This document shows positions 6,041 to 64,000 of a stretch of DNA of 64,000 bases, one piece after another (within the stretch, counting starts at the first letter, position 1; each line of letters begins with the position of its first letter). The translations under genes and the position numbers were made by a program. Under the pieces are notes generated by a model. The model had not been told where the DNA came from. It saw only the letters and a list, made by a program, of their open reading frames with translations, and did no database searches. This DNA is from an uncultured cyanobacterium (GTDB lineage Bacteria; Cyanobacteriota; Cyanobacteriia; Cyanobacteriales; Cyanobacteriaceae): positions 960,001 to 1,024,000 of the forward strand of contig CAVQBA010000004.1 of the NCBI GenBank assembly GCA_963710605.1, given 5' to 3'.

Positions 6041-7148
<1,108 letters not shown>

Positions 7149-7455: not shown

Positions 7456-7485
7456 TCTTTTTTTTATAACTATTATTTATCAATT

Positions 7486-7944: not shown

Positions 7945-8030
7945 ATAATTCCCCCTTTCACGGCACTTGATAGCGAATAAAGAATAGTGAAAAACTAATT
8001 CTGTGACATTTAACCCCTAATCACGAATAC

Positions 8031-9017
8031 CTAATTATTTTTGTGTCGAGATTGATGCCATTGCCAAGCATGACGGATAATAGTTTCAATCTCAGCATAT
8101 TTTGGTTGCCAGCCTAAAATCCTTTGTGCTTTTTCACTACTACCGACTAACATAGGAGGATCACCAGGACGACGATCGCCATTTTTAACGGTAAAATCGA
8201 TCTCAGTCACTTTCTTCGCCGCCGCAATTACTTCTTTAACCGAAAATCCATTACCATTACCCAAATTAAAGACATCACTTTTGCCCCCTTCGAGTAAATA
8301 TTCTAAACCGAGCAAATGACCTTGAGCCAAATCTTCTACATGGATATAATCTCGAATACAAGTGCCATCAGGTGTCGGATAGTCATCGCCCAAAATAGAA
8401 ATAGCCGATCGTTTACCTAATGCTGCATATAAAATTAAAGGAATTAAATGAGGTTCAGGATCATGATCTTCACCAATCAAACCATCAGCCGATGCACCTG
8501 CTGCGTTAAAGTAACGGAAAGCGACATATTCCCAATTGTAAGCCCTCTGAAAATCAGCTAAGATATTTTCTACCACTAACTTAGTATAACCGTAAGTATT
8601 GATAGGTTTTTGTGGATGTGTCTCAGTTAAAAGATTTTGTTCAGGAACACCATAAGTTGCACAAGTGGAAGAAAAGACAATATTTTTTACCCCTGCATTT
8701 TCCATCGCTTCTAACAAGTTAAGAGTATAAACAACATTGTTACGATAATATTTAGCAGGATTACTCATCGACTCACCTACATAAGCATAAGCCGCAAAAT
8801 GAATCACAGCTTCGATATCATGTTCAGCGAATATTTGATCTAACAATTGTCGATCGCTTAAATCTCCTTGAATGAAAGGAACATTTAATTTTTTGATTAT
8901 ATCCTCATGTCCATAAACCAAATTATCAAACACTAATAGCTCATAACCTTTACTTTGTAACAACTTAACCGTATGAGAGCCGATATAACCTGCACCGCCA
9001 GTAACTAAAATACTCAT
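8031..9017 (-). CDS. galE: UDP-glucose 4-epimerase
   Basis: GGAGYIGSH, FSSTCATYG, YGYTK, FRYFNAAGA, DGTCIRDYIHV. Confidence 0.95.
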   Translation of the reverse strand: MSILVTGGAGYIGSHTVKLLQSKGYELLVFDNLVYGHEDIIKKLNVPFIQGDLSDRQLLDQIFAEHDIEAVIHFAAYAYVGESMSNPAKYYRNNVVYTLNLLEAMENAGVKNIVFSSTCATYGVPEQNLLTETHPQKPINTYGYTKLVVENILADFQRAYNWEYVAFRYFNAAGASADGLIGEDHDPEPHLIPLILYAALGKRSAISILGDDYPTPDGTCIRDYIHVEDLAQGHLLGLEYLLEGGKSDVFNLGNGNGFSVKEVIAAAKKVTEIDFTVKNGDRRPGDPPMLVGSSEKAQRILGWQPKYAEIETIIRHAWQWHQSRHKNN

Positions 9018-44360: not shown

Positions 44361-46053
44361 ATGGCAAAATTGTCATCTAATAAACCAAGGGTGTATAGAC
44401 TTTCTTCTGATGAACAGATCACTGATGAAGTAAAGCTGAGAATAGAAGTCATTCAAACTCTTATAGAGCCATGCGATCGTCAACTATACCGACAACGAAA
44501 GCAAGAAGCAGCTCAAAAGTTGGGTGTGTCCATTCGATCGATTCGAAAGATTGATGAAAAAGTATCGAGAAGAGGGTTTAGTTGGTATTAGTAAAAGTAG
44601 ATCTGATAAAGGAAAAGTTCGTATTGATCGAGATTGGTATGACTTTATTTTGGATACTTATAAAAAAGGTAATCAAAGAGGCAAAAGAATTACTCGGCAT
44701 CAAGTGTTCTTGAAAGTTAAAGGACGTGCTAAGCAATTAAGACTAGAGAAAAAAGATTATCCTAGCCATCAAACAGTTTATCGAATTATCGATTTATATA
44801 TAGAAGAACAAGATAAGAAACGTAAAGCAAGGAGTCCTGGTTATTCAGGTTCTCGCTTGACTCACATGACTCGTGATGGTAGAGAAATCGAAGTGGAAGC
44901 AAGTAATGATGTTTGGCAATGCGATCATACTCGTCTTGATGTCAGATTAATTGACGAATTTGGAATTTTAGATCGTCCTTGGTTGACTATTATTATCGAT
45001 TCGTATTCTCGTTGTTTGATGGGTTTTTACTTGGGTTTTGAAAGTCCTAGTTCTCAAGTTGATGCTTTAGCTTTGCGTCAGGCAATTTTACCGAAATCTT
45101 ATAGTTCGGATTATGGTTTACGTAACGAATGGACTGCTTATGGTACACCGACTTACTTTTATACTGATGGAGGTAAAGATTTTCGCTCAATTCATTTGAC
45201 AGAACAAGTCGCTGTACAGTTAGGTTTTAGTTGTTCTTTAAGAAGACGACCTTCTGATGGAGGTATTGTCGAACGTTTTTTTCGTACTCTCAACGATAGT
45301 GTTTTAAGAGAACTACCTGGATATACAGGAGCAAATGTTCAACAACGTCCCAAAAATGTCGATCTCAATGCTTCTCTTACTCTCAAAGATTTAGAGCTAA
45401 TTTTAGTTCGTTATATTATTGACGAATATAATCAAAAAGCCGATGCCAGAAGAAAGGATGCTACTCGGATGCAATTGTGGGAAAGCGGCTTAATTGTCGA
45501 ACCCGAACCCTACAATGAAAGAGAACTTGATATTTGTTTGATGAAACAAACAAGAAGAACGATTCAGAAGTTTGGCACGTTGCAATTTGAGAATGTAACC
45601 TATAAAAGTAATCATCTTCGAGGCATGGCTGGTGAAGTTGTCGTAATTTGTTACGATCCCGAAGATATTACTACAATATTAGTATATGAGCGTTTGAATG
45701 ATGATACAGAGCAATTTTTAGATTATGCTATAGCTCAGGGATTGGAAGCGGAAAAACTATCACTACGAGAATTAAAAGCTATTAATAAAAAATTGAATCA
45801 AGAGCAGGAAAAAATTAATAATGATGCTGTACTTGATGCCATTTTAGAACGAGAAGTTTTAGTGGAGGAGTTGAGTAAAAAGAATCGTCAAGAACGTCGT
45901 CAAGTAGCTCACCAAGAAGTTAATACCGTTAGAACAGTAGCAGAAAAGTTAAATATTGCTGAGCCTGAAGTTGTGGAAGAGGAAGAAAATGAAGAGGAAG
46001 AGTTACCTTCCTATCAAGTCCAGTATATGGATGACCTTTTTGATGATGATTAA
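44361..46053 (+). CDS. tnsB: DDE transposase TnsB, one frameshift near the 5' end
   Basis: WQCDHT, IDSYSRC, YTDGGKDF, GGIVERFF; removing one base at ~44542 joins the HTH (AAQKLGVSIRSIERL). Confidence 0.93.
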
Positions 46054-46076
46054 TTATTAGTGGAGATTAATAGTAA

Positions 46077-46934
46077 ATGACGAATGCGGAAGTAATTGCG
46101 AATCAGTTTGGTAGTTTGCCTACTATCACTCCTGAAATTCAAGCCCAAATCGATCGATTAAATAAATATCCCTATATTGAGTTCAAGCAAGTGAAAGAAT
46201 GTCATGATTGGATGTATGAATTAGTACTTTCTCGCATGACGGGTTTACTGGTGGGAAAATCTAGTTGTGGTAAAACGGTCACTTGCAAATCTTTTATGGC
46301 AAGATACAATAAATCAAAGCAAGGAAACAAACAGAGAATTAAGCCCGTAGTTTATATTCAAGTTCCTGAAAAATGTGGTTCGAGAGATTTTTTTATCAAA
46401 ATACTTAAGGTGTTGAATAAACCAACTAAGGGAACAATTTCAGATTTGAGGGAAAGAACGCTTGACGGTTTGGCGATTCATTGTTGTGAAATGTTAATCA
46501 TTGATGAAGCTAACCACCTCAAACAAGAAACCTTTGCTGATGTTAGACATGTTTATGATGAGGATGATTTAAATATCTCGGTTTTATTGGTTGGTACAAC
46601 AAATCGTTTAGAAACAGTTGTTAGAAGAGATGAACAGGTAGCTAATCGCTTTTTGGAAGAATACGAACTCGATAGATTAGATGATAAGGAGTTTAAAACT
46701 ATTGTGAGAGTTTGGGAAAGAGATATTTTGAGATTACCCGAACCTTCTAATTTAGCAACAGCCGAAAATATTAGACTGTTGAAAAGCTCTACTCGTAAAT
46801 TACTCGGACGTTTAGAGAAAATTTTACGTAAAGCAGCGATTCGTTCTTTATGCAGGGGAGAAAAACATATTACGCCTGAAATTTTGAAGCAAGTAATTAG
46901 TTCTACTAAATGGTCTGATGAAAGAAGAAAATGA
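46077..46934 (+). CDS. tnsC: AAA+ ATPase TnsC
   Basis: Walker A GKSSCGKT, Walker B MLIIDEA, LVGT, RDEQVANRF. Confidence 0.93.
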   Translation: MTNAEVIANQFGSLPTITPEIQAQIDRLNKYPYIEFKQVKECHDWMYELVLSRMTGLLVGKSSCGKTVTCKSFMARYNKSKQGNKQRIKPVVYIQVPEKCGSRDFFIKILKVLNKPTKGTISDLRERTLDGLAIHCCEMLIIDEANHLKQETFADVRHVYDEDDLNISVLLVGTTNRLETVVRRDEQVANRFLEEYELDRLDDKEFKTIVRVWERDILRLPEPSNLATAENIRLLKSSTRKLLGRLEKILRKAAIRSLCRGEKHITPEILKQVISSTKWSDERRK

Positions 46935-47430
46935 GTTATGGTTAACAAAAATTGAACCATTCGCAGGGGAAAGTATCAGTCATTTTTTAGGTCGCTTTCG
47001 TCGTGCGAGAGGAAATCGTTTTTCTGCTCCTAGTGGTTTAGGAGAAGTGACAGGATTAGGTTCGGCTATATCTCGATGGGAAAAGTTTTATTTTTCACCT
47101 TTCCCCACACAAGAAGAGTTAGAAAAATTAGCAATAGTTGTGATGTTAGATGTCGATCGTCTTACACAGATGTTTCCTGATGAAGGTATGGTAACGCAAC
47201 CAAAACCAATTATGCTTTGTGCAATGTGTTATCAAGAATCTCCTTATCATCGAATAGAGTGGCAAGATAAGAAGAATAAAAGAGGGTGTAGAGTCCATAA
47301 TCTAAAACTACTTTCTAAATGTACTAATTGTGGAACTCCTTTTGCTATTCCTTCGATGTGGGTTGAAGGAAAATGTAGTCATTGTCATCTACCGTTCATG
47401 AAAATGAGTAAAAAACAAAAATCTTTGTAA
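46918..47430 (+). CDS. tniQ: TniQ
   Basis: PFAGESISHFLGRFRR, RWEKF, zinc-finger Cys pairs; short V-K type. Confidence 0.93.
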   Translation: MKEENELWLTKIEPFAGESISHFLGRFRRARGNRFSAPSGLGEVTGLGSAISRWEKFYFSPFPTQEELEKLAIVVMLDVDRLTQMFPDEGMVTQPKPIMLCAMCYQESPYHRIEWQDKKNKRGCRVHNLKLLSKCTNCGTPFAIPSMWVEGKCSHCHLPFMKMSKKQKSL

Positions 47431-47542: not shown

Positions 47543-50500
47543 ATGAATCGAAATGCTTTAGTTATTGGAATAAATAACTATCCTTTTTTGAAAAAAACCA
47601 ATGGACAAACAAACAATTTGACTACTCCAGCAACAGATGCTGAAGCGATCGCATCCTTATTAGAAAATCATGGTAACTTTAAAGTTAAACGATTACCAGA
47701 AGCTAGTATTGACGGCAAGCTACAGGTAGATCCGAATGGAACAGTTAACGCTAAAGAATTACAAAAAGAAATAAAAAATTTATTTTTACCAGAAAGTCAA
47801 CAAATTCCTGATACTGCCTTATTATTTTTTACTGGACATGGTTTGAGAAAAAAACAAGCAAAAAGATATAAAGGCTTTTTAGCAACGAGTGATTGTAATT
47901 TTAGTCAAGATAGATACGGTTTTTCACTACAAGTTTTAAGAGAAATATTAGAAAATAGTGATATTCTTCAACAAATAATCTGGTTAGATTGTTGTTATGC
48001 AGGAGAATTACTTAATTTTGAGGAAGCAAATCCAGAAGAAAAAGGAAGAGCGAGAGATCGTTTTTTTGTAAGTGCATCTGCTGATTTTGAAGAGGCGTAT
48101 CAGCTTTTAAATAAAAAATCAGGAGCTTTAAGTAGTGTCTTATTAAGAGGACTCAATCCTCGACAAAAAAAGCAACAACAATGGATTAATAATTTTTTCG
48201 TAGCTGATTTTATTTGTGAAGAATTTCAAACAAATCCTCAACTCAAAAATTTACCTCAAAGACCTGTTTGTCATAACTATGGAGGAATAATTCAACTTAT
48301 TCAAGGAGAAAAAATAGACGAAGAAATAAAAATTGATACATTAATTTCATCATCTCAAAAAACACAACAAAAATTGACTGTTGAGTTGATGTATAAGCAT
48401 TTTGAAAGAGTCAAAGCTATTGCTGGAACACGCTATACTCCCGAAATTAATGTTGATTTGCCAGAAGCTAGAATCTTTGAAGCTTTAGGTACAACAGATG
48501 TTTTCTTCAACAAAATTAACAATTTATATTCTCAGCTATATCATAAGTGGAAAAAGATTAAGATATTACCACAATCATTACAACAATTTATTTATATAAT
48601 CAATTTAAGAAATAATCTAGAAAATGATATCAAACCATTAATCAATATTTTGAAAAAAATACCAGAAAGAGATACGTTAATTATAGATTTTGACTCTATG
48701 GTTTCTTATTCAAAGAAAATTTCTGAGTATGATATTTTTGATTTAATTTATCCAGATAATATTAACCAAATAAAAAAATCAAAAGATAACAATAATGATG
48801 ATTTAAATAGAGCTTTAAATTATATTTATAATGATGTTTCCAAGCTCAAAACATTAGTAACCGAAATTTATCAACTTGTCATAAATGAAGTAGCGGCTTG
48901 TCATAACAGAAAACTTCTACTTATTGGAGAAGCGGGTACAGGTAAAACTCATCTCTTGTGTGATATTGCTAAACATCGTCTTGATAAATCACTCCCAACA
49001 ATAATTTTATTAGGACAACATTTTACTCAAGGTAATCCTTGGACTCAGATTATCAACCGATTCAATCTTTCGTTTCAAAATCAAGATGAATTCTTAGAAG
49101 CATTGGAAACTAGTGCAAAAAGTTGTGGTAGTCGAGCAATGATTTTGATTGATGCTCTTAATGAAACTACTGATAAAGGTTTATGGAAAAATGAATTAGC
49201 GGGGATGTTAACAGATTTAGATAACTATCCAAATATTTGTATTGCTGTCAGTTGTCGAACTTCATACGAGAAAGCAACAATTCCCGAAGAACTTGTTCCA
49301 GAAAAATTAGTTAAAGTTAAACATCATGGGTTTGAAAATCACGAATATATTGCAACAAAAACCTTTTTTAATCATTATGGAATTGAGCTTCCCAATGTAC
49401 CTTTACTAGTTCCAGAGTTTTCTAACCCACTTTTTTTGAAAACACTTTGTCAAGGTCTTAACAAGAAAAAATTAACCCGAATACCCAAAGGTTGTAAAGG
49501 AATTACTGCTATTTTAAATTTGTTTATAGATTCAGTTCATAATACTTTATCTGAACGACTTAATTATGACGAAAAAGATAATTTAGTGAAAAAAGCGTTA
49601 CAAGCTCTAGCTTTAACTATGGCAGACAATGGAGAAACTTGGATAGAAAGAAAAAAAGCACGAACTATTGTTAATTCGTTTTTACCGATAAGCAATAGTA
49701 ATTTTTCACAGAGTTTATTTAGTAATCTAATCGCTGAAGGATTATTATCAGAAGATTTACATTATTCTTCTTCAGAAGATATATACGAAGATGAGCAAGA
49801 AATTCATATTATTAGATTTCCTTACGAAAAATTTAGCGATCATTTAATTGTTCGTTATTTACTGCAAAAATACTTTGATAAAAATAATCCTGAGAAATCA
49901 CTAGAAAAAAATAACTCATTAGGAAAACTAATACAAAATAAATGGAACATATTTAACAAAGCTGGTTTATTTGAAGCTTTGTGCGTTCAAATACCCGAAT
50001 TAATTGGCAAAGAATTAATGGAATTAACATCATGGAATGTATTGTATTTTGAACGTCCATTTCTACAAAGTATTATTTGGCGTAATCCAAAGACAATCAC
50101 TCAAAAAACCAAAGATTATCTTAATGAAATATTTAAGGAAGAGGGAACAGAAGAAAAAGTTTATGAGCTTTTACTTACAGTTGCAACTGAACCAAACCAT
50201 CCTCTAAATGCCAAGTATCTGCATAAACATCTTCTCAACATGAATATGTCAGATAGAGATGCTATTTGGTCTGTTTATCTCTATTATCAATATGGAGAAA
50301 AAACGATTGTCGATCGTTTAGTTGAATGGGCATGGGATGCAGAAAAAGCTCATATTTGCGATGAGTCGATCGAACTTTATGCGATCGCTTTAACATGGTT
50401 TTTGACAACATCCGATCGTTTTCTTCGCGATCGAGCTACCAAAGCTTTAGTTTCAATGCTACATCCTAGACCTCTTGTTTTAGTGAAAGTGATTGAACAA

Positions 50501-52559
50501 TTTTTAGAAGTTAACGATCTTTATGTTTTAGAGCGTTTATATGCTGTTGCTTATGGCGTAGCGATGCTAAGTGAAAATTATCAAGAAGTAGGAGATCTAG
50601 CTCATAAAGTATATGAGTGGGTATTTAAAGATGAAAAACCACCAACACATATTCTTTTACGTGATTATGCTAGTGGAGTCATTGAAGTAGCAAATAATCT
50701 TGGGGCTTTATCAACCAATATAGATATGGAGAAAACCTCACCTCCTTATCAAAGTGATTGGGAACTAGATATTCCGACACAAGAGGAGCTAGAGCTATAT
50801 ATTAAACTAATTAAGCTTTGTTTTGATAATAGTATAACAAAACTAATATTACTATCCCTTCTTCAATCGTGGGATCTTAATTGCTTAATGATTTATTGGT
50901 TAAATTTTTGGTTGATAATCACTTTAAGAACAACTGATAGTGAATATCATCAACATCCTAAATATGCTTTAGACTTAGTCCAAAGATCTGTTCTTAATGA
51001 TGACCCTGTAATGGGAGGTGACTTTTCTATATATGTGATAGATTATTGTACCAATAATTGGTTTTCTCGCAGAATAAATCAACCCAAGGAATTAACTAAA
51101 AAAGAAAAATATGAGCAGTTTATTGACTCTCTTACTGATAAACAAAAACAAGCATGGAAAAAATATACGATAGCACGAGAAAACGTGAACTACTATGAAA
51201 CATTAGATCGAGAAGGTCGTATAGAATGCTTTGGAGAAGAATATTCAGATGAAAAATTAGTAGAGGCATTAGAATTTAAGAAATCATTATTTTTAAAGAC
51301 AATTGGTAAAAAGAAAACAGACATTTTTCTAAGTTATGTTCTGGATTATTTAGAAAATTCACGAGAAGAAAATATAGATATTTTTGATTCTTCCTTCGCA
51401 AAACGATGGATTCTTAAGCGGGTATTCGAATTAGGCTGGACGATCGAACAATTTGGCTTTTTCGATCGACACTGTTCCAGTCAAATGTCGTATTGCTAAT
51501 AAACCAGAGCGTATAGGTAAAAAATATCAATGGATTGCTTTTCATGAGTTTTTAGCACATATGGCGGATAATTTAGAGTTTAGAGAATCTTATTTATCCG
51601 ATAAAGTATCTGTTTATCAAGGTACTTGGCAAATTAGTGTAAGAGATATCGACCCATCTTTTTTATTGAAAAAAATTCCAGAATCTTCAATAAACCAAGT
51701 TAGATGGTTGACACCTGTTCACCACGAATTTAAGCATTGTATTAATGAAAAAGAACAAATAGATTGGATAACCAAAAAAAATGATTACCCCGATCCTTTA
51801 CAATTGATTGAATTAAATAATCCTGACGATAATAAACACTGGTTAACGTTAGAAGGTTTTTACCGATGGATGGAAAAAGAACCTTTAGAAGAAAAAATTT
51901 ATGAGAATCCTCGCAGAGAAATTTGGTATCAAATCAAAAGCTATATTGTTCGTAGTGAAAATGTAGATGAATTAGTTGAATGGTTAAAAGATAAAAATTT
52001 TGAAGGTAGATGGATGCCAGAATCACATCATATATCTAATGTTTCTGATGCTTTTTTGGGTGAATTTCCTTGGTCTGTATCTTGTCAAGAAGTAAATCAA
52101 ATCAATGATTGGACTCAATACACTAGTTCTCAAGAAGAATTACCACACCCAGTTTTAGTAACAACAACAGAATATATGAGTGAGGAAGGTGGATTTGATT
52201 GTTCGATTGATGAGACAATATCAGCTTTGATACCATCTAGTTGGCTAATAAAGAATATGGGATTAAAATGCTCCAGGAAAAAATTTGATTTTGTCGATTC
52301 AGATAACGAATTAACTGCTTTTACTCCATTAGGTGAACGACTTCCTAAAAATTGTCTGATCTCTAAAGAAAAATTGGCTCGTTTTCTGTTAGAAAATAAT
52401 TTAGAGATTATCTGGACATTATTGGGTGAGCGTCAACTTATTGGTGGCGAATTTGGTAAATGGAAAGGACGTATGGAAATTTCAGGAGTATATCAACTAA
52501 AAAATGGTTCAGTAACTCAAATAAAACTGAATAATTGGCATAACAAACCAAAAGAATAA
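47543..52559 (+). CDS. Caspase (peptidase C14) fused to an Avs2-like STAND NTPase, one frameshift
   Basis: ALVIGINNY, FTGHG, WLDCCYAG; RYTPEINV, GEAGTGKTHLLCD, LIDALNE, LRDRATKAL; ERIGKKYQWIA lies in the second ORF after a frameshift at ~51483. Confidence 0.8.
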
Positions 52560-52601: not shown

Positions 52602-54287
52602 TTAACTTGCTTCACTCTCCTCAGGATTATTTTCACTCTGTAACTTTCTTAATCCTTGATTGGCAATATCCGCACTCAATCCCCATAAAAATAAACCTAA
52701 ATAATCATATAATCCATTAACTCCAAAAGTTGCTCCTGCGTTTACATATAAAGTTTGTAATCCTAATAATACTAAAAGAATCAAGAAAACTAACCATAAA
52801 AGAGGACGAATTAACCAATAACGCACTTCTGCATTGAGAGTTTGAATACCAGATAATGCCGCTAAAAGTTTTGCCAACCAATTCCAACGATGACCGCCAG
52901 GAAGTCTAGGTTTTGGTAAAGCTTGAAAAGCCTCAATTAACTGATTACTATTTTCACGAAAGCTATCTAATAAAGGTTGAATAATATCATCACCTATTCC
53001 CATTGAACCATCTGCTTGTGCTTCTCTTAATTTGTCCTCAACTTCATTACTTAATTGTTGTGCTTGTTCGAGATTACCATTGATTAATGACTCTCTAGCT
53101 TCGTTGATTTTAGGATTTAATAATGCTTTGAGTGCATCTAATTCATTTAATTTAGTTTCTAAAGCTTCTAAGTTACTTGAAAAACTAACGATGATATCAA
53201 GCTTCTTCAATTCTTGTTCTACTATTTCTTCTGTTTCTTCTCCTCGATCGATTTTCTGTTTTAATGCTTGAAATTGTGGCTCTAAATAATTCAAAACATC
53301 TTCATTATTAATACTGACTGCTTTACCACGCAATTGAGCGTAACGAGGATAAAGGTTAACCTGTTTTTGTGCTTTAGGACTTTCCATATCCTGTGATAGT
53401 CTTCCTACCAGAATACCCAAAATAATCACAATTAAAGCCCAAATAGGTGCATCACGTACTGCTATAGTTGTATTAACCTTGAGGGGTTCATCAGCATTTT
53501 CTAACTTAAATCTTAAAGTACCCTGATAAAAGTCTGCGGAAAGTTGATTGCGATTAATTATTAACTCAATATCTCCAATATCTTGAGTTTCCAAAGTTGG
53601 ATTAAGAACAGTTAGAGATATTTCACTACTATTTACTGAATTACCTGTTTTTTCCCCTTGCATGACTACCTTCGCATCAGTAATTTGAACAGGAATTAAA
53701 GTTTCATTATCTAGCTGTACTATCCATTGATTCTTTGTCACGCTATCTGGTAATAACAAAGTGGCTAATCCACAACTAATAGGGTTATGACAACGAACTA
53801 CTTGAAAGTTTAAGTTGTCAGTAACAGGAGCAACATTAGGTTCGGCATCAATATCTAATTGCAAAGGGATTTCTAAAGGTTCAACATCCGTTTGTCCTGA
53901 AACTATAAACTGAATATTACCTTGATATTTACCTGGATGAATAATATTATTTATAGTAACTCGTACATCACGAGGTTGTCCTTTACTTAAACTTGTTCCT
54001 GTTGGAATGTTGATTTGGCTACGATCGATCTTGATACTGTCATCATTTACTTTAGTAAGATCAGAGGGGAGTATTTGCAAATCCTTAACTTCACCATCAG
54101 TTAATGTCAGCCTTACGTTACCACTAAAAGAAGTCGTTTCCTGATCTAATGTTCCTTTTATAATTAAAGGATTATCTTGCTTATCAACTATCAAACTAGG
54201 TAATTCCTGAGCTAAAACTTGAGATGAACTAAATATAATGACAACAAAGCTAATAACTAAAGTAAAACGCAACAATAACTTTCCCAT
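52602..54287 (-). CDS. Secreted/membrane protein of unknown function
   Basis: Signal peptide (..QVLA), two beta-rich repeats (PGKYQGNIQF / ADFYQGTLRF), TM, coiled coil, two C-terminal hydrophobic segments. Confidence 0.75.
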   Translation of the reverse strand: MGKLLLRFTLVISFVVIIFSSSQVLAQELPSLIVDKQDNPLIIKGTLDQETTSFSGNVRLTLTDGEVKDLQILPSDLTKVNDDSIKIDRSQINIPTGTSLSKGQPRDVRVTINNIIHPGKYQGNIQFIVSGQTDVEPLEIPLQLDIDAEPNVAPVTDNLNFQVVRCHNPISCGLATLLLPDSVTKNQWIVQLDNETLIPVQITDAKVVMQGEKTGNSVNSSEISLTVLNPTLETQDIGDIELIINRNQLSADFYQGTLRFKLENADEPLKVNTTIAVRDAPIWALIVIILGILVGRLSQDMESPKAQKQVNLYPRYAQLRGKAVSINNEDVLNYLEPQFQALKQKIDRGEETEEIVEQELKKLDIIVSFSSNLEALETKLNELDALKALLNPKINEARESLINGNLEQAQQLSNEVEDKLREAQADGSMGIGDDIIQPLLDSFRENSNQLIEAFQALPKPRLPGGHRWNWLAKLLAALSGIQTLNAEVRYWLIRPLLWLVFLILLVLLGLQTLYVNAGATFGVNGLYDYLGLFLWGLSADIANQGLRKLQSENNPEESEAS

Positions 54288-54417
54288 AGGAGATCGAGTT
54301 ATATTAATTTGTCCAATAGAATCATAGCAATTCTAGCAATCAGATGAAAAAACTTTTTCTTGTTCTACAAGTTCTTTGAATAAAAATGCCTAAGAAGTAG
54401 GATTTTCTATTTTTGAG

Positions 54418-57400
54418 TTAACCACACACAGGTTGAGCTAATTTTACATCAGCAGAAGCAAATAAGCTGTAAGCTAATCCTCTGGGGTCTAAATGTTCTC
54501 GTAATAAGCTGTGACGAGATTTAAATAAGGCTTCTCCTGCGGGATTTTGCTGTAAGAAGGATTGGAAAAAGTTAACCATAAAAGCATTCGCTAACATTTC
54601 TTTTACTTCACATTGCGTACCAATCACTCCAGCCGCACCTCAATCGCAGAAAAATTGTAGTAAATTCTCAAAATTATCAGGGGTATAATCAGCAGTGTCA
54701 CAAGCATTGAGAACAATTAAAGGTTGATGCTGGTCAAATTTCATATCCCATGCATCTAAATCTATTAACTGTATTTTATCACCATTACCAATAGTCAAAA
54801 AAGGACTATCATCAAATTCATCTATGCCTCCATGAGTATAAAAGTATAAAATATCTGCTGGAGTAGTACCATAATTTTTAATCATTTGTTTGAAGCTATC
54901 ACGGCTATCAATTCGCAGAAATTCTAGTTGTTTTGCTGAGGCTAATTTTCCTAATTCTTCCCAATGATGAGCTAATCGTTTAAAGTTGTTAAAGACAGTT
55001 GCATTAACTAATAACGGTAAATTATTACGAATAAATAAGGGTAAGGAATTTTTTGGTAAAGGTTTATGGGGTTCAAGTTTACAAGGTAATTGCTCGATAA
55101 TATAACGATAGCCCCAAAAACTATGAGGACAAACGGTTATTTCTTCCTCATCTGTACCATAACTAGGACAATCTTCAGGATTGGCACCATGTTGATGCCA
55201 ATTAGGACAAAGTTTAGTAACTCCCTCTTGATAAGACTCTATTTTTCGTTCATAAAGTAATTCCCAAGGTACACCTAAAGCACTAGATAAAGGAGCAACT
55301 TGAATTACTGTTTCGGGTTTTAAATCTACATTTAATCTTTGTCTGTCATCATGAATATCTTCTTGATAATCTAATCCCGGTAGTAAAGCTAAATAGAATT
55401 TTCTACCAATAACTGCTAATTCTCCTAAATGTTTAGTTAAAACTGCTTCTGTACTGCCTAATGTTCCTGAATAGGCGTTCATCGTTTGACATAATTGTTT
55501 ACGTATTACTGTTAAGGCTTTGGTTAATTTAGCGTCGGTTAAGGTTGATTGTTGAAAGCCTAAATCTGTTCCTTCTGTATCATAAAAGCGAAGTCCAATG
55601 CGATTATAGTCTATATCTCTTTCAGCGACAATCGTTAATTTACGAGGTTTATCTTGAAGAGGTTTTAAATCTTCAGTGCTTAAAGAGACAGCACGAGTCC
55701 AAGTTACATAAGCATCTTGCACAGGAAATGCTGATTCTGGTGGTTCATCTTCTGCATTTTCTACCACATCAATTTCTATTCTTTTTGATTGTAATAAATG
55801 CCCTTGTAAAAGTAGGTCTATATCAATACTATGTCTTCCTGTACGAGTAAAGGTTAAATCAAAAAAGATATATTCACTATCTCCTTTGGGAGGAAGTTTT
55901 AGTTTTTGAATTGGTGAATCTATTTCTACATCAAAAGAATTAACAACTACATCTAAATCTAAATATTCTTTATCTTCAAATAAGGTTTTTATTGATTCAT
56001 CTGGAAAGGTAACGTTAGGGTTTCCTATTCCCCAAAATTTACCAATATTAATTTTTAGATAATACTTTTTGGTATTTAGTTTCAATGGTTGATGAGTTGA
56101 GATATTTTTTTTCTCATTCAGTAAACAAAAACCACAATTTAGATAACGTTTTTCAAAAGAAAACGATTTATCTTTATTTGATAATTGTTGCTTAATTGCG
56201 TTATTAAGAATTCTATTTTCAGAAATATCATTTTCAGTAATGTGACCTGAATCTAAACAATTGGAAATAGCATTACTAACCTCATCCTTAAATGAATATC
56301 TTTGCACAATTCGCACATAAGACACTGCTTTACAACCCTTGGACCAAGACATGACTAAAGTATCGAAAATATCTTTAGCTTTTAAGGCTCTTTCTTCTTC
56401 GTATTTAAAATAAACTCCTTGGTTAAGGTTAAAGAGTAATTCCATCGAAATCCCCGTATCAATCCATTGTTGAATTGTGGCGATCGCTTTTACTACTTCA
56501 TCTTGATGCAAATTTTTATTTTCTTGATAAAACCAATATTTATCACTAATATAAGGAGGTGCGATCGCTACTGTTCCTGTTGCCCACTTATCATAGAAAA
56601 ATCTACTATATACAGGTAAGACACTTGCTGTACATCCTTGAACCAAAGAAGAAGATGTATTAGGTGCGATCGCAGTTATATGTGAGTTACGTATTCCGTG
56701 TTGTTGAATATCTAATGATAATTGTTGCCAACGAGATGTATTGTAAGCGTTTTGCTCGAACCATTCCACAGGCTTACAACCAATTAATAAACCTTTACTC
56801 CAATCGCTATTTTCAAAGGCAGGATAAGCACCTCTTTCTTGAGATAGCTTCATAGAAGCATGAGTACAATAATAACCAATATCTTCAAATAAGTTACTAA
56901 TTTGATTGAGGTTGTTGTATCTTAATTGACGTTTGGCTAACCAATCGGCTAACCCCATCGCACCAACACCAATGGTACGATAACGATCGTTATGAGATGC
57001 GGCATCTTCAAAAGGAGGTTGAGTAATTTCGATCGTATTATCTAAAATTCTCACGGCTAAATTACAGACAGATTCAATTATTTGATCATCCACATTAGCT
57101 AAATTGAGCGATACTAAATTACAACAATGAGCATATTTACCAGGGGTAACATTAGAAAAAGATTCGGTACATAAATTGACACCAGGAATATAACCATCAT
57201 GTTTATTTGGATTAGCTCGATTAATGGCATCTTTAAAAGCTAAGTAAGGCATTCCTGTCTCTACTTGTGCTTTCATTATTTCTTTGAATAATTCTCTAGC
57301 ACTTACTTTTTTGTAGAGTTTGATTCTGGTATCTATACTTGCTTCAATTACAGAGTAAGCCTCTTCAAATTCTTTACCCCATAAAGGTGCTAAATCGATA

Positions 57401-58567
57401 CCTAAGTTCTGTTGTACTTCATAAGGATCGATTAAAGTCCATTCTTGCCTATTTTGTACCCGACGCATAAATTCATCGGCGATAACTAGTTGAGGAAAGA
57501 CATCGTAGGCTTTACGACGTTGGTCGCCATTTTCGGTTTGCATTTCCAAAAATTCGGGTACATCTAAATGCCAAATATCTAAACCGACGGTAACTGCCCC
57601 TGCTCGTCTTCCTCCTTGATTAACAGCAATAGCTGTATCGTTGAGTAATTTAATCCAAGGTATTACACCACCTGAAGCGTTGTTTTTACCCATTACAGCA
57701 CTGCCTGTGGCACGTATTCTGGATACATTAACTCCTACTCCACCACCATTTTTAGAAATACGAGCGGTGTTAGTTATTTCTCGGAAAATACTTTCTAAGT
57801 TGTCGTCAATACTCACAATAAAACAACTTGTCAATGAGCCATTTGGTACTCTTAAGTTCGCCAAAATCGGTGTAGCTAAAGAAATACGACGAGATGCGAT
57901 CGCTTCGTAAAATTGACGAGCATAATGTAATCTCTCTTCAGGTGCCTCTACCATCGCTAATAATAAAGCACAAGTTAAAAACGCTTCTTGAGGTAACTCA
58001 TCATCAAGTAAATAACGATTAGTTAGTAAAACTGCCCCTGCGTAGTCATAATCTAAATCCCAGTCAGAATTAATCCAACTACCCGCTTCTTCTAATTCTG
58101 CGGTTGAATAAGTTAAAATACGATCGTCATATTTACCTTGAGCAACAAAGTCACTTACTGTTTGTACATAATTACCGTAGTTATAACCCCGACTAACTAA
58201 AATTTCTTTCCACAAACTCCAAATATATAAACGCCCAGCTACATAACGCCAATCTGGTTGCTCCAGAATCACATAATTCTAAAGCACAGTTGATTAAATT
58301 ATCTTGAATTTCTCTAGTCGTAATTCCATGACGTAAACGAGTTTTCAAACCCGATTCTAAAGCAATTGAATTAACTTCTTTGGGGTAACAAGCCCAATCA
58401 ACAACTTTTCTGATTTTACTAATGTCTAAAGGAGCAAATTGACCACTTCTTTTGATTACTTGAATTTGCTTAGGTAATTTTTCGTATCGTAACTTATCTA
58501 GATTATGCTTTACATTATCATCTATAAAAGTTTTTTTTTCTTGAACTTGATTTTTAGATGAACTCAT
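54418..58567 (-). CDS. ATP cone-ribonucleotide reductase alpha (class I)-CHAT protease fusion (one frameshift, one in-frame stop)
   Basis: ATP cone VIKRSG..ITTREIQ; RNR motifs LTSCF, NQGGRRAGA, NLCTE, CCNLVS, APNTSSS; CHAT motifs VPWELLY, YFYTHGG, LNACDT, VIGTQ. RNR and CHAT lie in one uninterrupted 1210-aa ORF. Confidence 0.88.
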
Positions 58568-58657
58568 GAAATTGATACATAAATAATTGTAATAAAATAA
58601 ATGCTTAAAATTTAGTTATAACAGTACATACTATAAAAAATCAGAATATTTATATTT

Positions 58658-60928
58658 TTACTTAACTAATTCTTGAGCTAACTTAACATCAGCAGAAGCA
58701 AATAAACTATAAACTAAACCTCTAGGATCTAACTGATTTAATAGTATTTTACGAGCCTGAAATAACGCTTCCCCTGCACAAGTTTTTTGAAAGAAAGACT
58801 TAAAGAAATGAATCATTAACTCATTAGCTAACATCTCCTTTACTTCACATTGTGTACCGATTACTCCCGCCGCACCTTTATCATGAAAAAACTGTAACAA
58901 ATTTTCAAAACTTTCAGGACTATAGCCAGCAGAATCACAAGCATTTAATACAATTAAAGGTTGATGTAGATTAAAATTAATATTCCAAGCATCTAAATCA
59001 TTTTTCTTAATTTGTTCTCCATCTCCCACTTCAAGATATGGTCTTCTAAAAATATCACTTCCTCCATGAGTATAAAAATACAAAATATCAGCAGAATTAT
59101 CAATATCGAATAAAGCAGATTCTACCTTATCTAAACTATCAAGTTTTAATAATTCCAGTATTTCTTTAGATGCTAAATTACGTAAGTTTTGCCAATGTTC
59201 ATCTAATAGATTTAATTCATTAGAAACGATCGCCTTAAACTGTAAAGGTGACTGATTACGAATTAATAAAGGTAAAGAATGCTCAGGGGTAGAAGCATGA
59301 GGCATAACTTTACAAGGTAATTGCTCAATAATATAGCGATAACCCCAAAAACTATGGGGACAAACTGTTTTGGCTTCTTCTTTTGTGCCATAACTAGGGC
59401 AATCTTCAGGATTCGCACCGTGCTGTTTCCATGTGGGACAAAGTTTAATTTTTCCTTCACGATAACTTTCTATTTTACGCTCATAAAGTAACTCCCAAGG
59501 CACACCTAATTGACTCGATAAAGGTGCTACTTGAATGATAGTTTTTGGTTGTAAATCAACTCTTAAATTTTCTCCCCTATCTATCTTATTTTTTTGCCCA
59601 GATAACTTGGGTAATAATTCTGTATAAAATGATCTGCCAATATCGGCTAATTTACCTAAATGCTTAGTTAAAACTTCTTCTGTACTCCCAATACTGCCTC
59701 CATAACCTTTTACCATTGTTTCACATAATTGAGTCCGTATTGCAGCTAAAACTTGAGTTAAATTATCATTAGTTAGTTGAGAATGTTGGCAACCTAAATC
59801 TTTTCCTGTGTTATCGTAAAATCTTAAGCCGATACGATTATAATCAATATCCCTTTCCGTTACTATGGTTAACCTACGAGGATTCTTCTTTAAAAAAGTT
59901 AATTCATCTGGATTTAAAGTAGCACTACGAGTCCAAGTAATATAAGCATCTTGTACTGGAAAAGCAGATTCTGGGGCAATATCTCCTGATTTTTCCACCA
60001 CATAAACTTCAACTCGTTTTGACTGTAATAAATACCCATGAAACATTAAATCAATATCAATACTTTGTCTTTGAGTGCGAGTAAAAGTCACAGGAAAATC
60101 AATAAATTCACTATCACCTATTTTGGAGAGTTTTAATCGTTGTTGACTAGATATGATTTCAACGTCAAAAGAATGAAGTATTACATCCATTTCTAAAGTA
60201 TCTTTATCTTCAAAAAAAGGCTCTAATAATTCTTCTGGTAAAGCAGTATCGGGAGAACCAATTCCCCAAAATTTCCCAACATTAACTTTTAAAATATACT
60301 CGGCGATTTCTAAAGCTAAAGGCTGTTGGGTATCGACAAATCGATAATGATTTAATGAATAATGATCTAATTGATAAAATCCTGTATTTATATAACGAGG
60401 CTGTATTTTATCTATACCTTTGTCTATATCTTCTCTTATAACTCCCTCATCGGAATTACTTACATCGGTAGCTGAATTAAAATAATACTCAAATTTTTCA
60501 TCTATATTGGAATTGGTAATTAACTGCTTAGGATTATCCGATTTGAAAATCTGGCTAGCGGCAACAATAATGGGTACAGAATTATTTTCATCTATACCAA
60601 AAGTAATCGGTTTATTTTCTTCTAAGTTTAATTTTTCTATATCCTGCCAAGTAGGTAATATCTGTTCGACTGATTCTTTCCCGAAGGTACTTTCAATTAA
60701 ATTCAATTTAAAGTAATTTGCTTGATATATCCTCTTTAATTCTTCATCGTTTTCAATAATTGTCATTAACGCTGGTTCAATTTCTTCTTCCCAGTCTTCA
60801 GGTGCCATTTCCAGCATATTCCCAATATTTCTTAATGACTCTAACCTTTCTGGAGGTAGAGTTGCATTGAATTCTCTTAAAGTTGGTAAAACAATAGAAA
60901 GTGTTCTATTAATATCTAAATTTGCCAT
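58658..60928 (-). CDS. CHAT-domain (caspase-clan) protease with uncharacterised N-terminal domain
   Basis: VPWELLY, FWGYRYIIEQ, YFYTHGG, LNACDS, GAAGVIGTQ; start set at ATG 60928 (MANLDINR). Confidence 0.88.
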   Translation of the reverse strand: MANLDINRTLSIVLPTLREFNATLPPERLESLRNIGNMLEMAPEDWEEEIEPALMTIIENDEELKRIYQANYFKLNLIESTFGKESVEQILPTWQDIEKLNLEENKPITFGIDENNSVPIIVAASQIFKSDNPKQLITNSNIDEKFEYYFNSATDVSNSDEGVIREDIDKGIDKIQPRYINTGFYQLDHYSLNHYRFVDTQQPLALEIAEYILKVNVGKFWGIGSPDTALPEELLEPFFEDKDTLEMDVILHSFDVEIISSQQRLKLSKIGDSEFIDFPVTFTRTQRQSIDIDLMFHGYLLQSKRVEVYVVEKSGDIAPESAFPVQDAYITWTRSATLNPDELTFLKKNPRRLTIVTERDIDYNRIGLRFYDNTGKDLGCQHSQLTNDNLTQVLAAIRTQLCETMVKGYGGSIGSTEEVLTKHLGKLADIGRSFYTELLPKLSGQKNKIDRGENLRVDLQPKTIIQVAPLSSQLGVPWELLYERKIESYREGKIKLCPTWKQHGANPEDCPSYGTKEEAKTVCPHSFWGYRYIIEQLPCKVMPHASTPEHSLPLLIRNQSPLQFKAIVSNELNLLDEHWQNLRNLASKEILELLKLDSLDKVESALFDIDNSADILYFYTHGGSDIFRRPYLEVGDGEQIKKNDLDAWNINFNLHQPLIVLNACDSAGYSPESFENLLQFFHDKGAAGVIGTQCEVKEMLANELMIHFFKSFFQKTCAGEALFQARKILLNQLDPRGLVYSLFASADVKLAQELVK

Positions 60929-60976
60929 TTTTTTAAGTACATTGACAATAACTAATAAATAACAAAATAAATCCAA

Positions 60977-61291: not shown

Positions 61292-63163
61292 ATGAGTATC
61301 AAAACGATCGAATGTCGTCTTTATGCTTCTTCAGAAACTAAACGTTATCTTTGGCAGTTAATGGCAGATAGAAACACTCCTCTAATAAATGAGTTACTAT
61401 TTCAAGTCAGTCAACATCAAGACTTTGAAACTTGGTTTCAGACTAAAAAAATTGCTCAAAAACCCATCAAGGATATTTGTTTACCATTAAGACAACTTCC
61501 TCAATATCAAGAACAACCAGGAAGATTTTTCACGAGTGCGATTGCTTTGACTCATTACATATATAAATCATGGTTCGCAGTTCAACAGAGGCTTCAGCGA
61601 CGAATTGAAGGTAAACGTAGATGGTTTAATATTCTCAAAAGCGATTTAGAATTACAACAATTATCGGGTAACTCTATTGAAAAAATTATTACTCAAGCAG
61701 AAAAAATACTTGAGGACACTGAAACTCAGTTAAAACAAACAAAAAAAGATAGGAATAAAAAGAAAGATTCTAATTTATTCAACCACTTGATCGACGAATA
61801 CCAATCAAAAACTAATACTTTAGAACGGTGTGCGATTGCTTACTTACTCAAAAATCAATGCCAAATACCAGATGAAATAGAAGATATAGCTAAATTTGAG
61901 CAATATAGAAGAAAAAAAGAAATCGAAATCGAAAGACTTCAACAGCAACTAGAGAATCGTCTGCCGAAGGGTAGAGATTTAACTAGTAGAGAATGGTTTG
62001 ATACTTTGGCGATTGCATCAGAAAAAGTACCTGAAACTGAAAATGAAGCATCCGCTTGGCAAAGTAGCTTGTTAAGAAAATCACCGATTATTCCTTACCC
62101 AGTTAGTTATGAAACTAACACCGATTTAAGTTGGTCAAAAGATCGGCGAGGACATCTATTAGTCAAATTTAATGGTATTAGTAAACATCAGTTTGAAATA
62201 AGATGCGATAGAAGACATTTACATTGGTTTCAACGCTTTTGGGAAGATAGACAAATTTACAAACAAGATCCAACTAAATATAGCAGTGCCTTATTCACAC
62301 TTCGTTCTGCTCGTTTATTATGGCGTGAAAATAAAGGAAAAGGTAATCCTTGGGATATTCATACACTCTACTTACAATGTTCGCTAGATACTCGTTTTTG
62401 GACAGTAGAAGGTACACAAGAAATTGCTCAAACTAAAATTACTCAAACAAAAGAAAAATTAGAAAAAATTCAAGCTAAACCAGTTCTTAATTCTAATCAA
62501 GAAGCAGATCGACAACGAAAGCAATCTAGCTTAGAGAGAATCCAGAATCCTTTTCCACGACCACATAAACAACATTATAGAGGTAATCCCAATCTTATCT
62601 TAGGAGTTAGTTTTGGATTACGAAAACCTGCCACTGTTGCTGTAGTTAACGTTTTGACTCAAAAAGCGATCGTTTATCGTAGCATCAAACAATTATTGAA
62701 TGAAAACTATAAATTACTGAATCGTCAACGTCAACAGAAAATAGAATTGTCAAAACAAAGACACAAAGCCCAAAAACACGAAGGATTTAATCAAATAGGA
62801 GAGTCTAATTTAGGTGAATATGTCGATCGATTGATTGCCAAAGCGATCGTTGATATTGCCAAATCTTATCGAGTAGGTAGTATTTTTTTACCAGAACTGA
62901 AAAATATTCGTGAAATTTTACATAGTGAAGTTCAAGCTAAAGCAGAAATTAAAATTACTGGTTATAAAGAAGCTCAGAAAAAATATATGAAAGAATACCG
63001 TAAAAATTTACATCAATGGAGTTATAGCAGACTAATAGAATCAATTAGTCAACTAGCCAATCAAGAAAGAATATCCGTTGAATTTATCAAACAAAGTAAT
63101 GATGGTACACAGCAGGAAAAAGCTAAAAGGATAGCGATCGATGGTTACAATTCTCGCTCTTGA
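61292..63163 (+). CDS. cas12k: Type V-K effector Cas12k
   Basis: MSIKTIECRL, LWQLMA..NTPLINELL, QPGRFF, GVSFGL (RuvC-I Asp replaced), HQWSYSRL; 623 aa. Confidence 0.96.
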   Translation: MSIKTIECRLYASSETKRYLWQLMADRNTPLINELLFQVSQHQDFETWFQTKKIAQKPIKDICLPLRQLPQYQEQPGRFFTSAIALTHYIYKSWFAVQQRLQRRIEGKRRWFNILKSDLELQQLSGNSIEKIITQAEKILEDTETQLKQTKKDRNKKKDSNLFNHLIDEYQSKTNTLERCAIAYLLKNQCQIPDEIEDIAKFEQYRRKKEIEIERLQQQLENRLPKGRDLTSREWFDTLAIASEKVPETENEASAWQSSLLRKSPIIPYPVSYETNTDLSWSKDRRGHLLVKFNGISKHQFEIRCDRRHLHWFQRFWEDRQIYKQDPTKYSSALFTLRSARLLWRENKGKGNPWDIHTLYLQCSLDTRFWTVEGTQEIAQTKITQTKEKLEKIQAKPVLNSNQEADRQRKQSSLERIQNPFPRPHKQHYRGNPNLILGVSFGLRKPATVAVVNVLTQKAIVYRSIKQLLNENYKLLNRQRQQKIELSKQRHKAQKHEGFNQIGESNLGEYVDRLIAKAIVDIAKSYRVGSIFLPELKNIREILHSEVQAKAEIKITGYKEAQKKYMKEYRKNLHQWSYSRLIESISQLANQERISVEFIKQSNDGTQQEKAKRIAIDGYNSRS

Positions 63164-63192
63164 AAAATCAGCCTAATTTTTTAACTTAGACC

Positions 63193-63222
63193 TTGACAAA
63201 ATCAGTATATAAGTATTACTAT
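63193..63222 (+). promoter_or_regulatory. tracrRNA promoter
   Basis: TTGACA-N18-TACTAT just before the tracrRNA-like sequence. Confidence 0.7.
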
Positions 63223-63227
63223 AATTA

Positions 63228-63545
63228 ATAGCGTCGCAGTCCATGTTTAAACCATAAACCCCTGCACTGTGCAAAAAATGGGTTAGTTTGACTATTAAAT
63301 AATATTCATTCTTTCTGACCCTAGTAACTGCCCGCTTCTGAGGCTGCTATCTCTAGACCTTGCAAAGAGACAGGAAAAATTGATAGAAGACGATCTTGCT
63401 ATCTTTATTCTATCGGTTAGGTACGCTCCCAGCAATAAGAAGTAAAGCAAAGAATAAGGTAATCTTCTTGGCTTAATCCTCGAGATGTGGATGTGGATGA
63501 CTACAGTGACGGTTACTAAATCACCTTCTTCACCGAAGGAATCTC
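63228..63545 (+). ncRNA. V-K tracrRNA (ends approximate)
   Basis: Blocks typical of V-K tracrRNAs: ATAGCGTCGCAG, GGTTAGTTTGAC, CTTTCTGACCCT.GTA.CTGC, CGCTCCCAGCAATAAG, TACTAAATCACC. Confidence 0.85.
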
Positions 63546-63751
63546 ACTCACATTAATTAATTTTGACCAATCTATAGTGAGGTTCAAATCCTTAGAAGGT
63601 TTGTCAAAAACGCCAAAGTGATACATAGTAATATTTATCTCTATGTTACCTAAAAATACTTAAGTCAATCAAGCTGATTTTGTCCAGAATTTAAGAGGTT
63701 TGTCAAAATTGGGTTGGAGAAATCTTCAGTGACTTGGTTTGGGCGTATAGA

Positions 63752-64000
63752 GTTTCAACGCTCTGATTAGTGTTTCGTAGATTGAAAGAAAAAAAGAGGC
63801 AATAAAGATTTAAAAATTGCTGGGTTTCAACGCTCTGATTAGTGTTTCGTAGATTGAAAGCATCAAGTAAAAGATATATTGCTATTTTCTACTCTGTTTC
63901 AACGCTCTGATTAGTGTTTCGTAGATTGAAAGGATCTTTCTGAAATTCAGAAAATTCCCGATTATCTGTTTCAACGCTCTGATTAGTGTTTCGTAGATTG
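63752..64000 (+). CRISPR. CRISPR array (truncated by the window end)
   Basis: 37-nt repeat GTTTCAACGCTCTGATTAGTGTTTCGTAGATTGAAAG at 63752, 63824, 63896 and 63968 (partial); three 35-nt spacers. Confidence 0.98.

Follow-up and report, generated by a model that had tools for sequence, protein, structure and literature searches.

The window analysed here, a stretch of 64,000 nucleotides from the contig CAVQBA010000004.1 of an uncultured cyanobacterium, carries on its minus strand, at 54418-58567, a gene in which an ATP cone and a class Ia ribonucleotide reductase (RNR) alpha core are followed by a linker and a CHAT protease module, giving about 1381 amino acids (aa) when read through. As assembled, the gene is spread over three head-to-tail open reading frames (ORFs) on the minus strand, 58193-58567 (124 aa), 54640-58272 (1210 aa) and 54418-54627 (69 aa). 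The Pfam search assigned an ATP cone to the 124-aa ORF (PF03477, 2.8e-11), the RNR all-alpha domain (PF00317, 1.5e-15) and barrel (PF02867, 4.4e-132) together with a sub-threshold CHAT match to the 1210-aa ORF, and the CHAT end to the 69-aa ORF. These matches and the CHAT domain bear out the proposal of an earlier note, made from the DNA letters of the window, that the 1210-aa ORF runs from an RNR core into a CHAT protease.

When read through, the product consists of a new N-terminus of 33 aa, the ATP cone, the RNR core (56281-58272), a 42-aa linker (DEVSNAISNCLDSG...SFSFEK; 56155-56280) and a CHAT module of about 580 aa (54421-56154). The N-terminal ORF, which encodes the new stretch of about 33 aa and the cone, is in frame until about 58268. 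There, at 58263-58270, one extra base (GATTCTGG in the fusion, GATA-TAG in the housekeeping nrdA of the same genome) shifts the frame between ATP cone and core; this first lesion was seen in the gapped blastn alignment to the host nrdA and in the sequence itself, and there is no homopolymer of at least 4 bases at the site. The second lesion, at 54640-54642, is an in-frame TGA within ...TGCGAT/TGA/GG, after which 73 further CHAT codons follow in the same frame. The earlier note had proposed two single-base corrections, of which the one between cone and core was right, whereas the 3′ lesion is this stop codon and not a frameshift. The RNR motifs TSCF, GGRRAG, NLCTE, CCNL and APNTSSS are all present in the 1210-aa ORF, and the CHAT catalytic codons lie at 54832-54834 (His, in the YTHGG motif) and 54700-54702 (Cys, in the NACD motif). 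The CHAT module starts at RYLNCGF; beta-sandwich domains come next, then a helical hairpin and a Cys-rich segment, and last the caspase-like CHAT domain.

The genome contains one housekeeping nrdA (770 aa), located on another contig, and one nrdB. The RNR segment of the fusion matches codons ~35-764 of the 770 in the host nrdA with 88.4% DNA identity, the alignment containing one 1-base insertion and one 3-base deletion, and the homology stops 6 codons short of the host stop. At the protein level, 618 of 662 residues of the RNR core are identical to the genome's own NrdA, which was the closest of 2069 NrdA homologues (93% aa identity, compared with 88% for the runner-up). When a tree was built that also contained nrdA from five genomes of the family (one being of the same genus), the fusion core came out as sister to its own nrdA with 100% bootstrap support. 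Since the two are sisters, the RNR moiety is a duplicate of the host nrdA that arose inside the lineage, neither a phage gene nor a foreign one. The linker shows no detectable homology to nrdA or to the nrdA 3′ flank; its local alignment to the 3′ flank and 5′ region of the host nrdA scored 23, compared with a shuffle mean of 23.5, and nothing rose above the shuffled controls.

The pairwise comparison of the RNR core with the genome's own nrdA gave a synonymous divergence (dS) of 0.60, a non-synonymous divergence (dN) of 0.035 and a ratio of the two (omega) of 0.059. As dS between the two species of the genus is 1.26, the duplicate is old, and its nucleotide-binding and active-site residues have been held by purifying selection for about half of the divergence time of the genus. 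When the changes were polarised by outgroups, 80 synonymous and 43 non-synonymous changes (32 without the six non-homologous end codons) fell on the fusion branch, and 82 synonymous and 18 non-synonymous changes on the housekeeping branch. Combined with the pairwise site counts, these correspond to a branch omega of ~0.11 for the fusion and ~0.06 for the housekeeping gene. Gene conversion was considered as a cause of the conservation and was rejected because dS is even along the RNR gene (0.36-1.06 across eight windows).

The residues kept and lost in the RNR part were examined against 118 cyanobacterial NrdA sequences, in which 319 columns are invariant. The NrdA domain set of ATP cone, all-alpha domain and ten-stranded barrel is complete, with the cone displaced into another frame by the one extra base, and the active-site Cys/Asn/Glu motifs and loop 2 are intact. 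The ATP cone keeps 25/25 invariant columns and 16 of the 17 that are at least 90% conserved. The fusion changes 7 of the 319 invariant columns, all at positions 665-770 in the numbering of the genome's own NrdA: K665T, P669A, Y751S and D759Y, together with C765, C768 and N770 of the replaced tail. The 270 invariant columns ahead of residue 665 show no change, so that within the homologous part 4/46 columns from residue 665 on are changed as against 0/270 before it, a contrast (Fisher p = 4e-4) to be read with the fact that the boundary at residue 665 was picked after the data had been seen.

Two of these losses concern the chemistry directly. Y751S replaces the first Tyr of the YY pair (KAVSYVR in the fusion, KAVYYVR in 118/118 NrdA sequences); the substituted Ser is residue 651 of the 1210-aa ORF and aligns with the first Y of the YY pair in the NrdE chains 1pem and 9l6o. 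The C-terminal redox Cys pair, present in 118/118 NrdA sequences (...EECTACAN in the host), is gone from the fusion, as homology ends before the tail and the linker takes over. The YY pair belongs to the radical-transfer path and corresponds to E. coli Y730/Y731. In E. coli NrdA both the YY pair and the C-terminal Cys pair are needed for turnover. Because the first Tyr of the pair is a Ser and the Cys pair is lost at the fusion point, the RNR moiety is predicted to be retired from class I radical chemistry, with the YY relay broken and the redox pair cut off. As far as the sequence tells, the parts for beta-dependent radical transfer and re-reduction have been given up and all else has been kept. 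The intact active-site motifs and allosteric regions would also suit an active second RNR that merely bears a C-terminal extension, but such an enzyme is hardly conceivable with a Ser at a position where every NrdA compared has a Tyr and with the equally universal Cys pair missing.

The C-terminal part of the fusion is a member of a larger protein family. Its residues 707-1284 share 60% identity with residues 192-772 of a 772-aa CHAT protein encoded directly upstream (over residues 192-699 of that protein the figure is likewise 60%), and a search of 5.8 billion protein clusters returned 104 relatives of the CHAT module, none of them with an annotated RNR domain. The relatives come from cyanobacteria, Chloroflexota and Acidobacteriota, and in cyanobacteria the module is rare, being present in 6 of 401 sampled genomes with its own genome counted. 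In all relatives the conserved part opens at RY(L/I)NxGF and the region before it differs from protein to protein. Among the 104 relatives this variable slot holds TCAD7 in six and EAD2 in one, and elsewhere a caspase with a zinc ribbon, an astacin, a GroEL equatorial-like segment (P0033), HEAT-like repeats or unassigned helical domains; a Pfam search of nine more long relatives gave only CHAT, bar weak RhoGAP and DUF496 matches in one. The N-terminal segment of P0033, a 932-aa protein from a Logan contig, matches the GroEL equatorial domain (PDB GroEL chains, ~1e-26 to 8e-32), so that the variable slot has here once more received a domain of housekeeping origin. This hints at a wider habit of building phage-exploited housekeeping proteins into the protease as decoys.

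The fusion is a regular member of this family in its module, having both the RY(L/I)NxGF start and the invariant Cys cluster. It keeps 41/41 invariant columns and 63/63 columns conserved to at least 90% among 51 relatives, 104/104 in all. The RNR motifs and the CHAT His/Cys dyad reported in the earlier note are present, and the dyad columns (H493 and C537 of the family alignment) are invariant in 52 sequences. The PF12770 scores of the two fusion fragments, 23.2 and 22.5 bits, lie just under the cut-off of 24, compared with 54.5 bits for the upstream paralogue. The structure prediction that the earlier note had called for gave a confident AlphaFold (AF2) model of linker and module (pLDDT 85.7, pTM 0.84), with a caspase-like domain in addition to beta-sandwich domains and a helical hairpin; the linker forms helices of low confidence. 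The top Foldseek matches were Csx29/TPR-CHAT (7zoq_A, 1.9e-11), separase, an activated SAVED-CHAT filament (8tl0_A, 3.2e-07) and the anti-sigma factor DdvA, with a probability of 1.00 to Csx29, separase and SAVED-CHAT, which places the model in the CHAT/separase fold.

Of the relatives found, P0411 (946 aa) is the closest. Its N-terminus consists of 365 aa of helical repeats, and its identity to the fusion is 81-93% from residue ~880 through the C-terminus, compared with just 40-67% ahead of that residue. The C-terminal ~405 aa of the fusion (54421-55630) are thus near P0411, and the first ~175 aa of the module are nearer to a protein encoded on a Calothrix plasmid. This mosaic identity suggests recombination among paralogues of the family.

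Several results bear on whether the junction between the two parts exists in the organism. The frame is open for 1210 codons across it. An identical junction peptide, including the Y-to-S change, is encoded by P0329, an ORF of 108 aa on a 19-kb contig in a second assembly record, a very noisy one that is perhaps from the same population and may not stem from independent reads. In DNA the RNR part reaches just 88.4% identity with the genome's only other nrdA, which argues against a join with the housekeeping gene and for a locus of its own. An assembly chimera, in which the RNR-CHAT junction would be nonexistent in the organism, might be expected of an error-prone assembly, and two Logan contigs that carry the flanking genes at 99.8-100% aa identity contain of the fusion only its last 59 codons. 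Against the open frame, the distinct RNR copy and the repeated junction peptide, however, such an artefact is very improbable, and the misassembly that the earlier note had named as a possible refutation is contradicted by the last two of these.

The fusion was found nowhere else. A junction query detected no other RNR-CHAT fusion and no second nrdA in 19 other genomes of the family, of which the same-genus genome is only 67% complete. NrdA-like sequence was present within 4.5 kb in 0 of 78 CHAT-module loci, and a query with the linker region found no relative among metagenome contigs or genome contigs. The fusion was likewise absent from the database proteins matched by CHAT or NrdA queries, a weaker negative as clusters may hide long members: cluster representatives can mislead, the fusion itself standing under an NrdA cluster and P0411 under a 175-aa fragment. 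No publication joining ribonucleotide reductase with a CHAT domain was found in the literature, the supplementary architecture tables of Kaur et al. being outside the search. The statement of the earlier note that it knew of no described RNR-CHAT fusion is in agreement with the protein, genome and literature searches.

A look-up of sequencing runs for 54300-58700 listed none, and the two lesions were compared with the background of the assembly. In 400 kb taken from a complete genome in the same family there were 134 ORFs of at least 300 aa, of which 75 matched the fusion-bearing genome at 55% identity or more; 63 of these aligned in one piece, five partially, and seven were split between frames (~9%). 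Five of eight frameshift sites in conserved genes lay at homopolymers. Mid-gene TGA stops occurred in two conserved genes, one of them at an Arg position reading TTCGATTGACC, the same CGAT/TGA context as in the fusion. Genome-wide, 10 of 23 CGAT/TGA stops that end frames of at least 200 codons were followed by at least 60 open codons in frame, the fusion TGA being one of these ten, compared with 54 of 2131 for other stops. Long ORFs interrupted in this way elsewhere in the genome include pairs of 765+875, 456+449 and 469+470 codons.

Counting the motif gave a similar picture. The genome contains 8449 CGATCG and 2003 CGATTG, the latter about twice CGATAG (914) or TGATCG (990), and a relative in which the same variants number 82, 87 and 78 has no CGATTG excess. 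Either a systematic error of the consensus or a hot spot of mutation seems to lie behind the excess, at a motif that is probably methylated. At the TGA site the closest relatives have Arg (FFCDRGAAG), and the second, very noisy assembly record of the locus reads FFCERGAA (P0365). To judge from these sequence patterns, the TGA most likely reflects a systematic error of the consensus at a CGATCG motif or else a very recent mutation at a hot spot. The frameshift of the first lesion is inside the genome-wide background rate. A T inserted in a GATC motif was considered as a systematic cause: long frames are joined in the GAttC context at 11.5 per 10,000 sites, compared with 5.4 for all TT sites, a measure that is not site-specific. 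The frameshift may likewise be an error or a very recent mutation. A noisy assembly fits the low completeness estimate of the genome (84.9% at 7 contigs). Given this genome-wide TGA pattern, the Arg in the second assembly and a frameshift in ~9% of conserved genes, the lesions fail to show that the gene is dead. More generally, in-frame CGATTGA stops and frameshifts of this assembly are unsafe as evidence for pseudogenes.

The fusion gene is flanked on the same strand by two genes of related interest. Upstream, at 58658-60976, lies the gene for the 772-aa CHAT-module paralogue (PF12770, 1.5e-14), whose own N-terminal domain of ~190 aa is of a type common to Okeania and Trichodesmium homologues. 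Downstream, at 52602-54287, a 561-aa membrane protein is encoded, a conserved partner of the CHAT module. The features seen by eye are a signal peptide, an outer domain rich in beta structure, a transmembrane (TM) helix, a coiled coil and, at the C-terminus, further TM helices; the protein has no match in Pfam, NCBIfam or PADLOC, and in the ESM Atlas only unnamed clusters were found. A homologue stands directly downstream on the same strand in 43 of the 78 CHAT-module loci, which were taken from species-representative genomes, and the pairing spans Cyanobacteriota, Chloroflexota, Acidobacteriota and Syntrophorhabdus/Smithella. The membrane protein is 54-70% identical in Calothrix, Okeania and Trichodesmium. 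By its sequence and gene order, a CHAT protease with an exchangeable N-terminal domain and a membrane protein of ~560 aa make up a widespread, unnamed two-gene cassette.

On the Calothrix plasmid, the closest full-length relative of the module is followed by the 54%-identical membrane-protein homologue. On this plasmid, from Calothrix sp. PCC 7716, a 1159-aa CHAT protein (CHAT 2.4e-34; 4894-8373 of the locus) precedes the CHAT-module gene; its TPR-like match is sub-threshold (19.1 bits, cut-off 27). Since the plasmid shows this arrangement too, tandem CHAT genes before the membrane-protein gene recur. In the window, no terminator-like site was found on the minus strand between the paralogue, fusion and membrane-protein genes, and there is weak evidence that the three may form one operon. 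A complex prediction with the intact CHAT module of the paralogue and the C-terminal half of the membrane protein scored 0.26, below the mark of 0.32.

The three genes are cargo of a CRISPR-associated transposon (CAST) of type V-K and stand next to Avs2. The transposition genes tnsB, tnsC and a putative tniQ occupy 44524-47430 on the plus strand (Mu-transpos_C/rve and TniB matches; tniQ by position only, with no family match). At the other cargo end, 61292-64000 on the plus strand, are cas12k (NF038191, 6.9e-263) and the start of a CRISPR array, whose 36-nt repeats recur every 72 nt from 63749 and run past the window end. The CAST setting claimed in the earlier note is thereby established, and its observation that the cargo has no nrdB also holds, the single PF00268 match of the genome being on another contig. 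Avs2, a caspase-like domain with a STAND NTPase, is encoded at 47543-52559 on the plus strand; NF041813 positions 4-971 and 973-1316 fall on two overlapping ORFs, and PADLOC calls Avs2. Its split, at 51453-51499, is beside a T5 run and two CGATCG motifs and is probably the same kind of assembly lesion as in the fusion.

The reading that we prefer, with a probability of roughly 0.45, is that of a real lineage-specific fusion, in which a duplicate of the host nrdA replaced the N-terminal domain of a CHAT cassette protease and would act as its input domain, the TGA being most likely a consensus error and the frameshift an error or a very recent mutation. A non-catalytic input role is favoured because a host paralogue is under purifying selection (omega ~0.1), has lost the YY Tyr and the Cys pair, and occupies the variable slot of the CHAT family. 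What appears new is a CHAT effector of the exchangeable-N-terminus type that carries a whole, retired housekeeping enzyme, as a singleton.

The principal competitor is a dead chimera: a recent rearrangement in decaying cargo would have joined a second, once functional nrdA to a CHAT gene, the product would never have been functional, and the lesions would be real. Several points weigh against the preferred reading, and some of them speak for this one. The fusion is known from one genome and one very noisy second record, possibly of the same population. The gene as assembled is broken twice and the adjoining Avs2 is broken as well; conserved coding sequence carries about 10 lesions per 114 kb, a rate that two in 4.15 kb somewhat exceed, and no long homopolymer surrounds the frameshift, whereas five of the eight such sites in conserved genes lie at homopolymers. 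The fusion may be younger than the duplication, in which case a free-standing second nrdA could have been what the long purifying selection acted on, and the boundary behind the contrast within the RNR part was chosen post hoc. On the other side, the join is in frame and at the family's own domain boundary, with the whole module kept from RYLNCGF onward. The changes at invariant columns are confined to the C-terminal 100 NrdA residues (4/46 against 0/270), whereas neutral decay would scatter them evenly, and neither the CHAT module (104/104) nor the ATP cone (25/25) shows decay. The TGA is one of a genome-wide set of such stops and is read as Arg in the second assembly. We consider a dead chimera somewhat unlikely on this balance. 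The earlier note would have accepted such an end if no other genome had the fusion and both lesions were real; the first half holds, as the fusion was unique in the searches, and the second probably does not, as the TGA is very probably an artefact or very recent and the frameshift is inside the genome-wide background.

If the fusion is a working protein, the RNR moiety may plausibly be a non-catalytic input domain with a sensor or decoy mechanism. In class Ia RNR, the ATP cone and the specificity site drive oligomer changes. The sequence of events would begin with the duplicate of nrdA (ATP cone and core, host codons ~35-764) taking the place of the N-terminal domain of the protease. The main option is that the moiety would sense a phage-caused rise or imbalance of dNTPs or dATP through its ATP cone and specificity site; as a second option, it could be a decoy that captures phage NrdB or an RNR-binding phage protein. 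The altered oligomeric state would bring CHAT domains together, much as in caspase-like proteases and the SAVED-CHAT filament, and turn proteolysis on, and cleavage of the conserved membrane protein or of other cell proteins would lead to abortive infection. That the retired host subunit, derived from the most elaborate dNTP-sensing protein of the cell, is in this way the built-in input domain of an immune protease, whose oligomerisation driven by dATP, dNTPs or a phage protein activates CHAT, is a tentative proposal, possible but in our estimate on the unlikely side. In recent work, dNTP rises driven by phage NrdAB trigger both Clover (PMC12265719) and DRT2/DRT4/DRT9 (10.64898/2026.10.27.754916), and the idea of an integrated decoy is cited for the bacterial bNACHT11 in PMC11702601.

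The NrdA moiety could also serve as a targeting adaptor that pairs with housekeeping NrdA or NrdB and docks the protease on the RNR holoenzyme, cleavage then stopping dNTP synthesis. Its 93% identity to the host NrdA and the retention of all upstream invariant residues would suit such pairing, and relatives have the homotypic adaptor domains EAD2 and TCAD7 in the same slot, the homotypic-contact principle of effector-associated domains (EAD) being described in PMC8195603. Depletion of dNTPs is, moreover, a known defence outcome, for example by the Clover dGTPase (PMC12265719). However, a catalytically dead alpha subunit paired with the housekeeping alpha could be costly, and the conserved downstream membrane protein suggests another output, so that we regard the adaptor as unlikely.

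Among known systems, the nearest are the CHAT effectors with N-terminal EAD or TCAD domains of the NTP-dependent conflict systems of multicellular bacteria, described by Kaur, Burroughs, Iyer and Aravind (PMC8195603). The C-terminal ~580 aa of the fusion belong to the same family, and like the fusion these effectors combine a constant effector with an exchangeable N-terminal domain and come from the same habitat of cyanobacteria, Chloroflexota and Acidobacteriota. The fusion differs from those described there in that its N-terminus is the paralogue of a full-size housekeeping enzyme (~800 aa) and not a small adaptor. In addition, neither the fusion nor its paralogue contains an EAD or TCAD or has a domain in common with the neighbouring NTPase (Avs2, by Pfam), and the partner gene conserved across loci of the fusion family encodes a membrane protein.

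SAVED-CHAT and Csx29/TPR-CHAT (Craspase) have a CHAT fold like that of the fusion and rest on the same concept, in which a ligand-binding input controls a caspase-like protease by assembly. The sequence identity is 11-15%, however, and the locus is without TPR, SAVED and Cas7-11. The CRISPR system near the fusion guides a transposon through Cas12k, in place of a type III effector, and the input of the fusion would be an RNR alpha subunit. The comparison with Csx29/TPR-CHAT drawn in the earlier note therefore applies to the fold, by Foldseek, and to nothing beyond it. A weak PADLOC match of ~70 residues links the catalytic region of the fusion (residues 1124-1196; 6.2e-05, 20 bits) to Borvo (BovA), and the remaining architecture is unrelated. 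Borvo is a single-gene CHAT defence system.

The integrated decoys of plant NLR proteins (RRS1-WRKY; cited in PMC11702601) are likewise copies of host proteins, needed or targeted by pathogens, that are built into an immune protein. The fusion domain is derived from the host, as sister to the host nrdA, and has, judged by its sequence, lost its own catalytic function. The fusion differs from the plant examples in being a protease and not an NLR, and its pathogen ligand is only proposed. With Clover (PMC12265719) and DRT2/DRT4/DRT9 (10.64898/2026.10.27.754916) it would have in common the proposed signal, phage NrdAB or altered dNTP pools. Those systems, however, sense dNTPs by a dGTPase or polymerase active site, without an RNR domain or a protease.

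Taken together, the analysis defines a widespread, uncharacterised two-gene cassette of CHAT protease and membrane protein that is directly testable. If the RNR moiety does act as the switch, the fusion would be the first instance in which a whole allosteric metabolic enzyme has been reused as the sensor for a cell-death protease in bacteria. It would also parallel the integrated decoys of plants, in this case with a donor gene that can still be recognised in the same genome, and would tie in with phage-driven dNTP changes as a general signal of infection.

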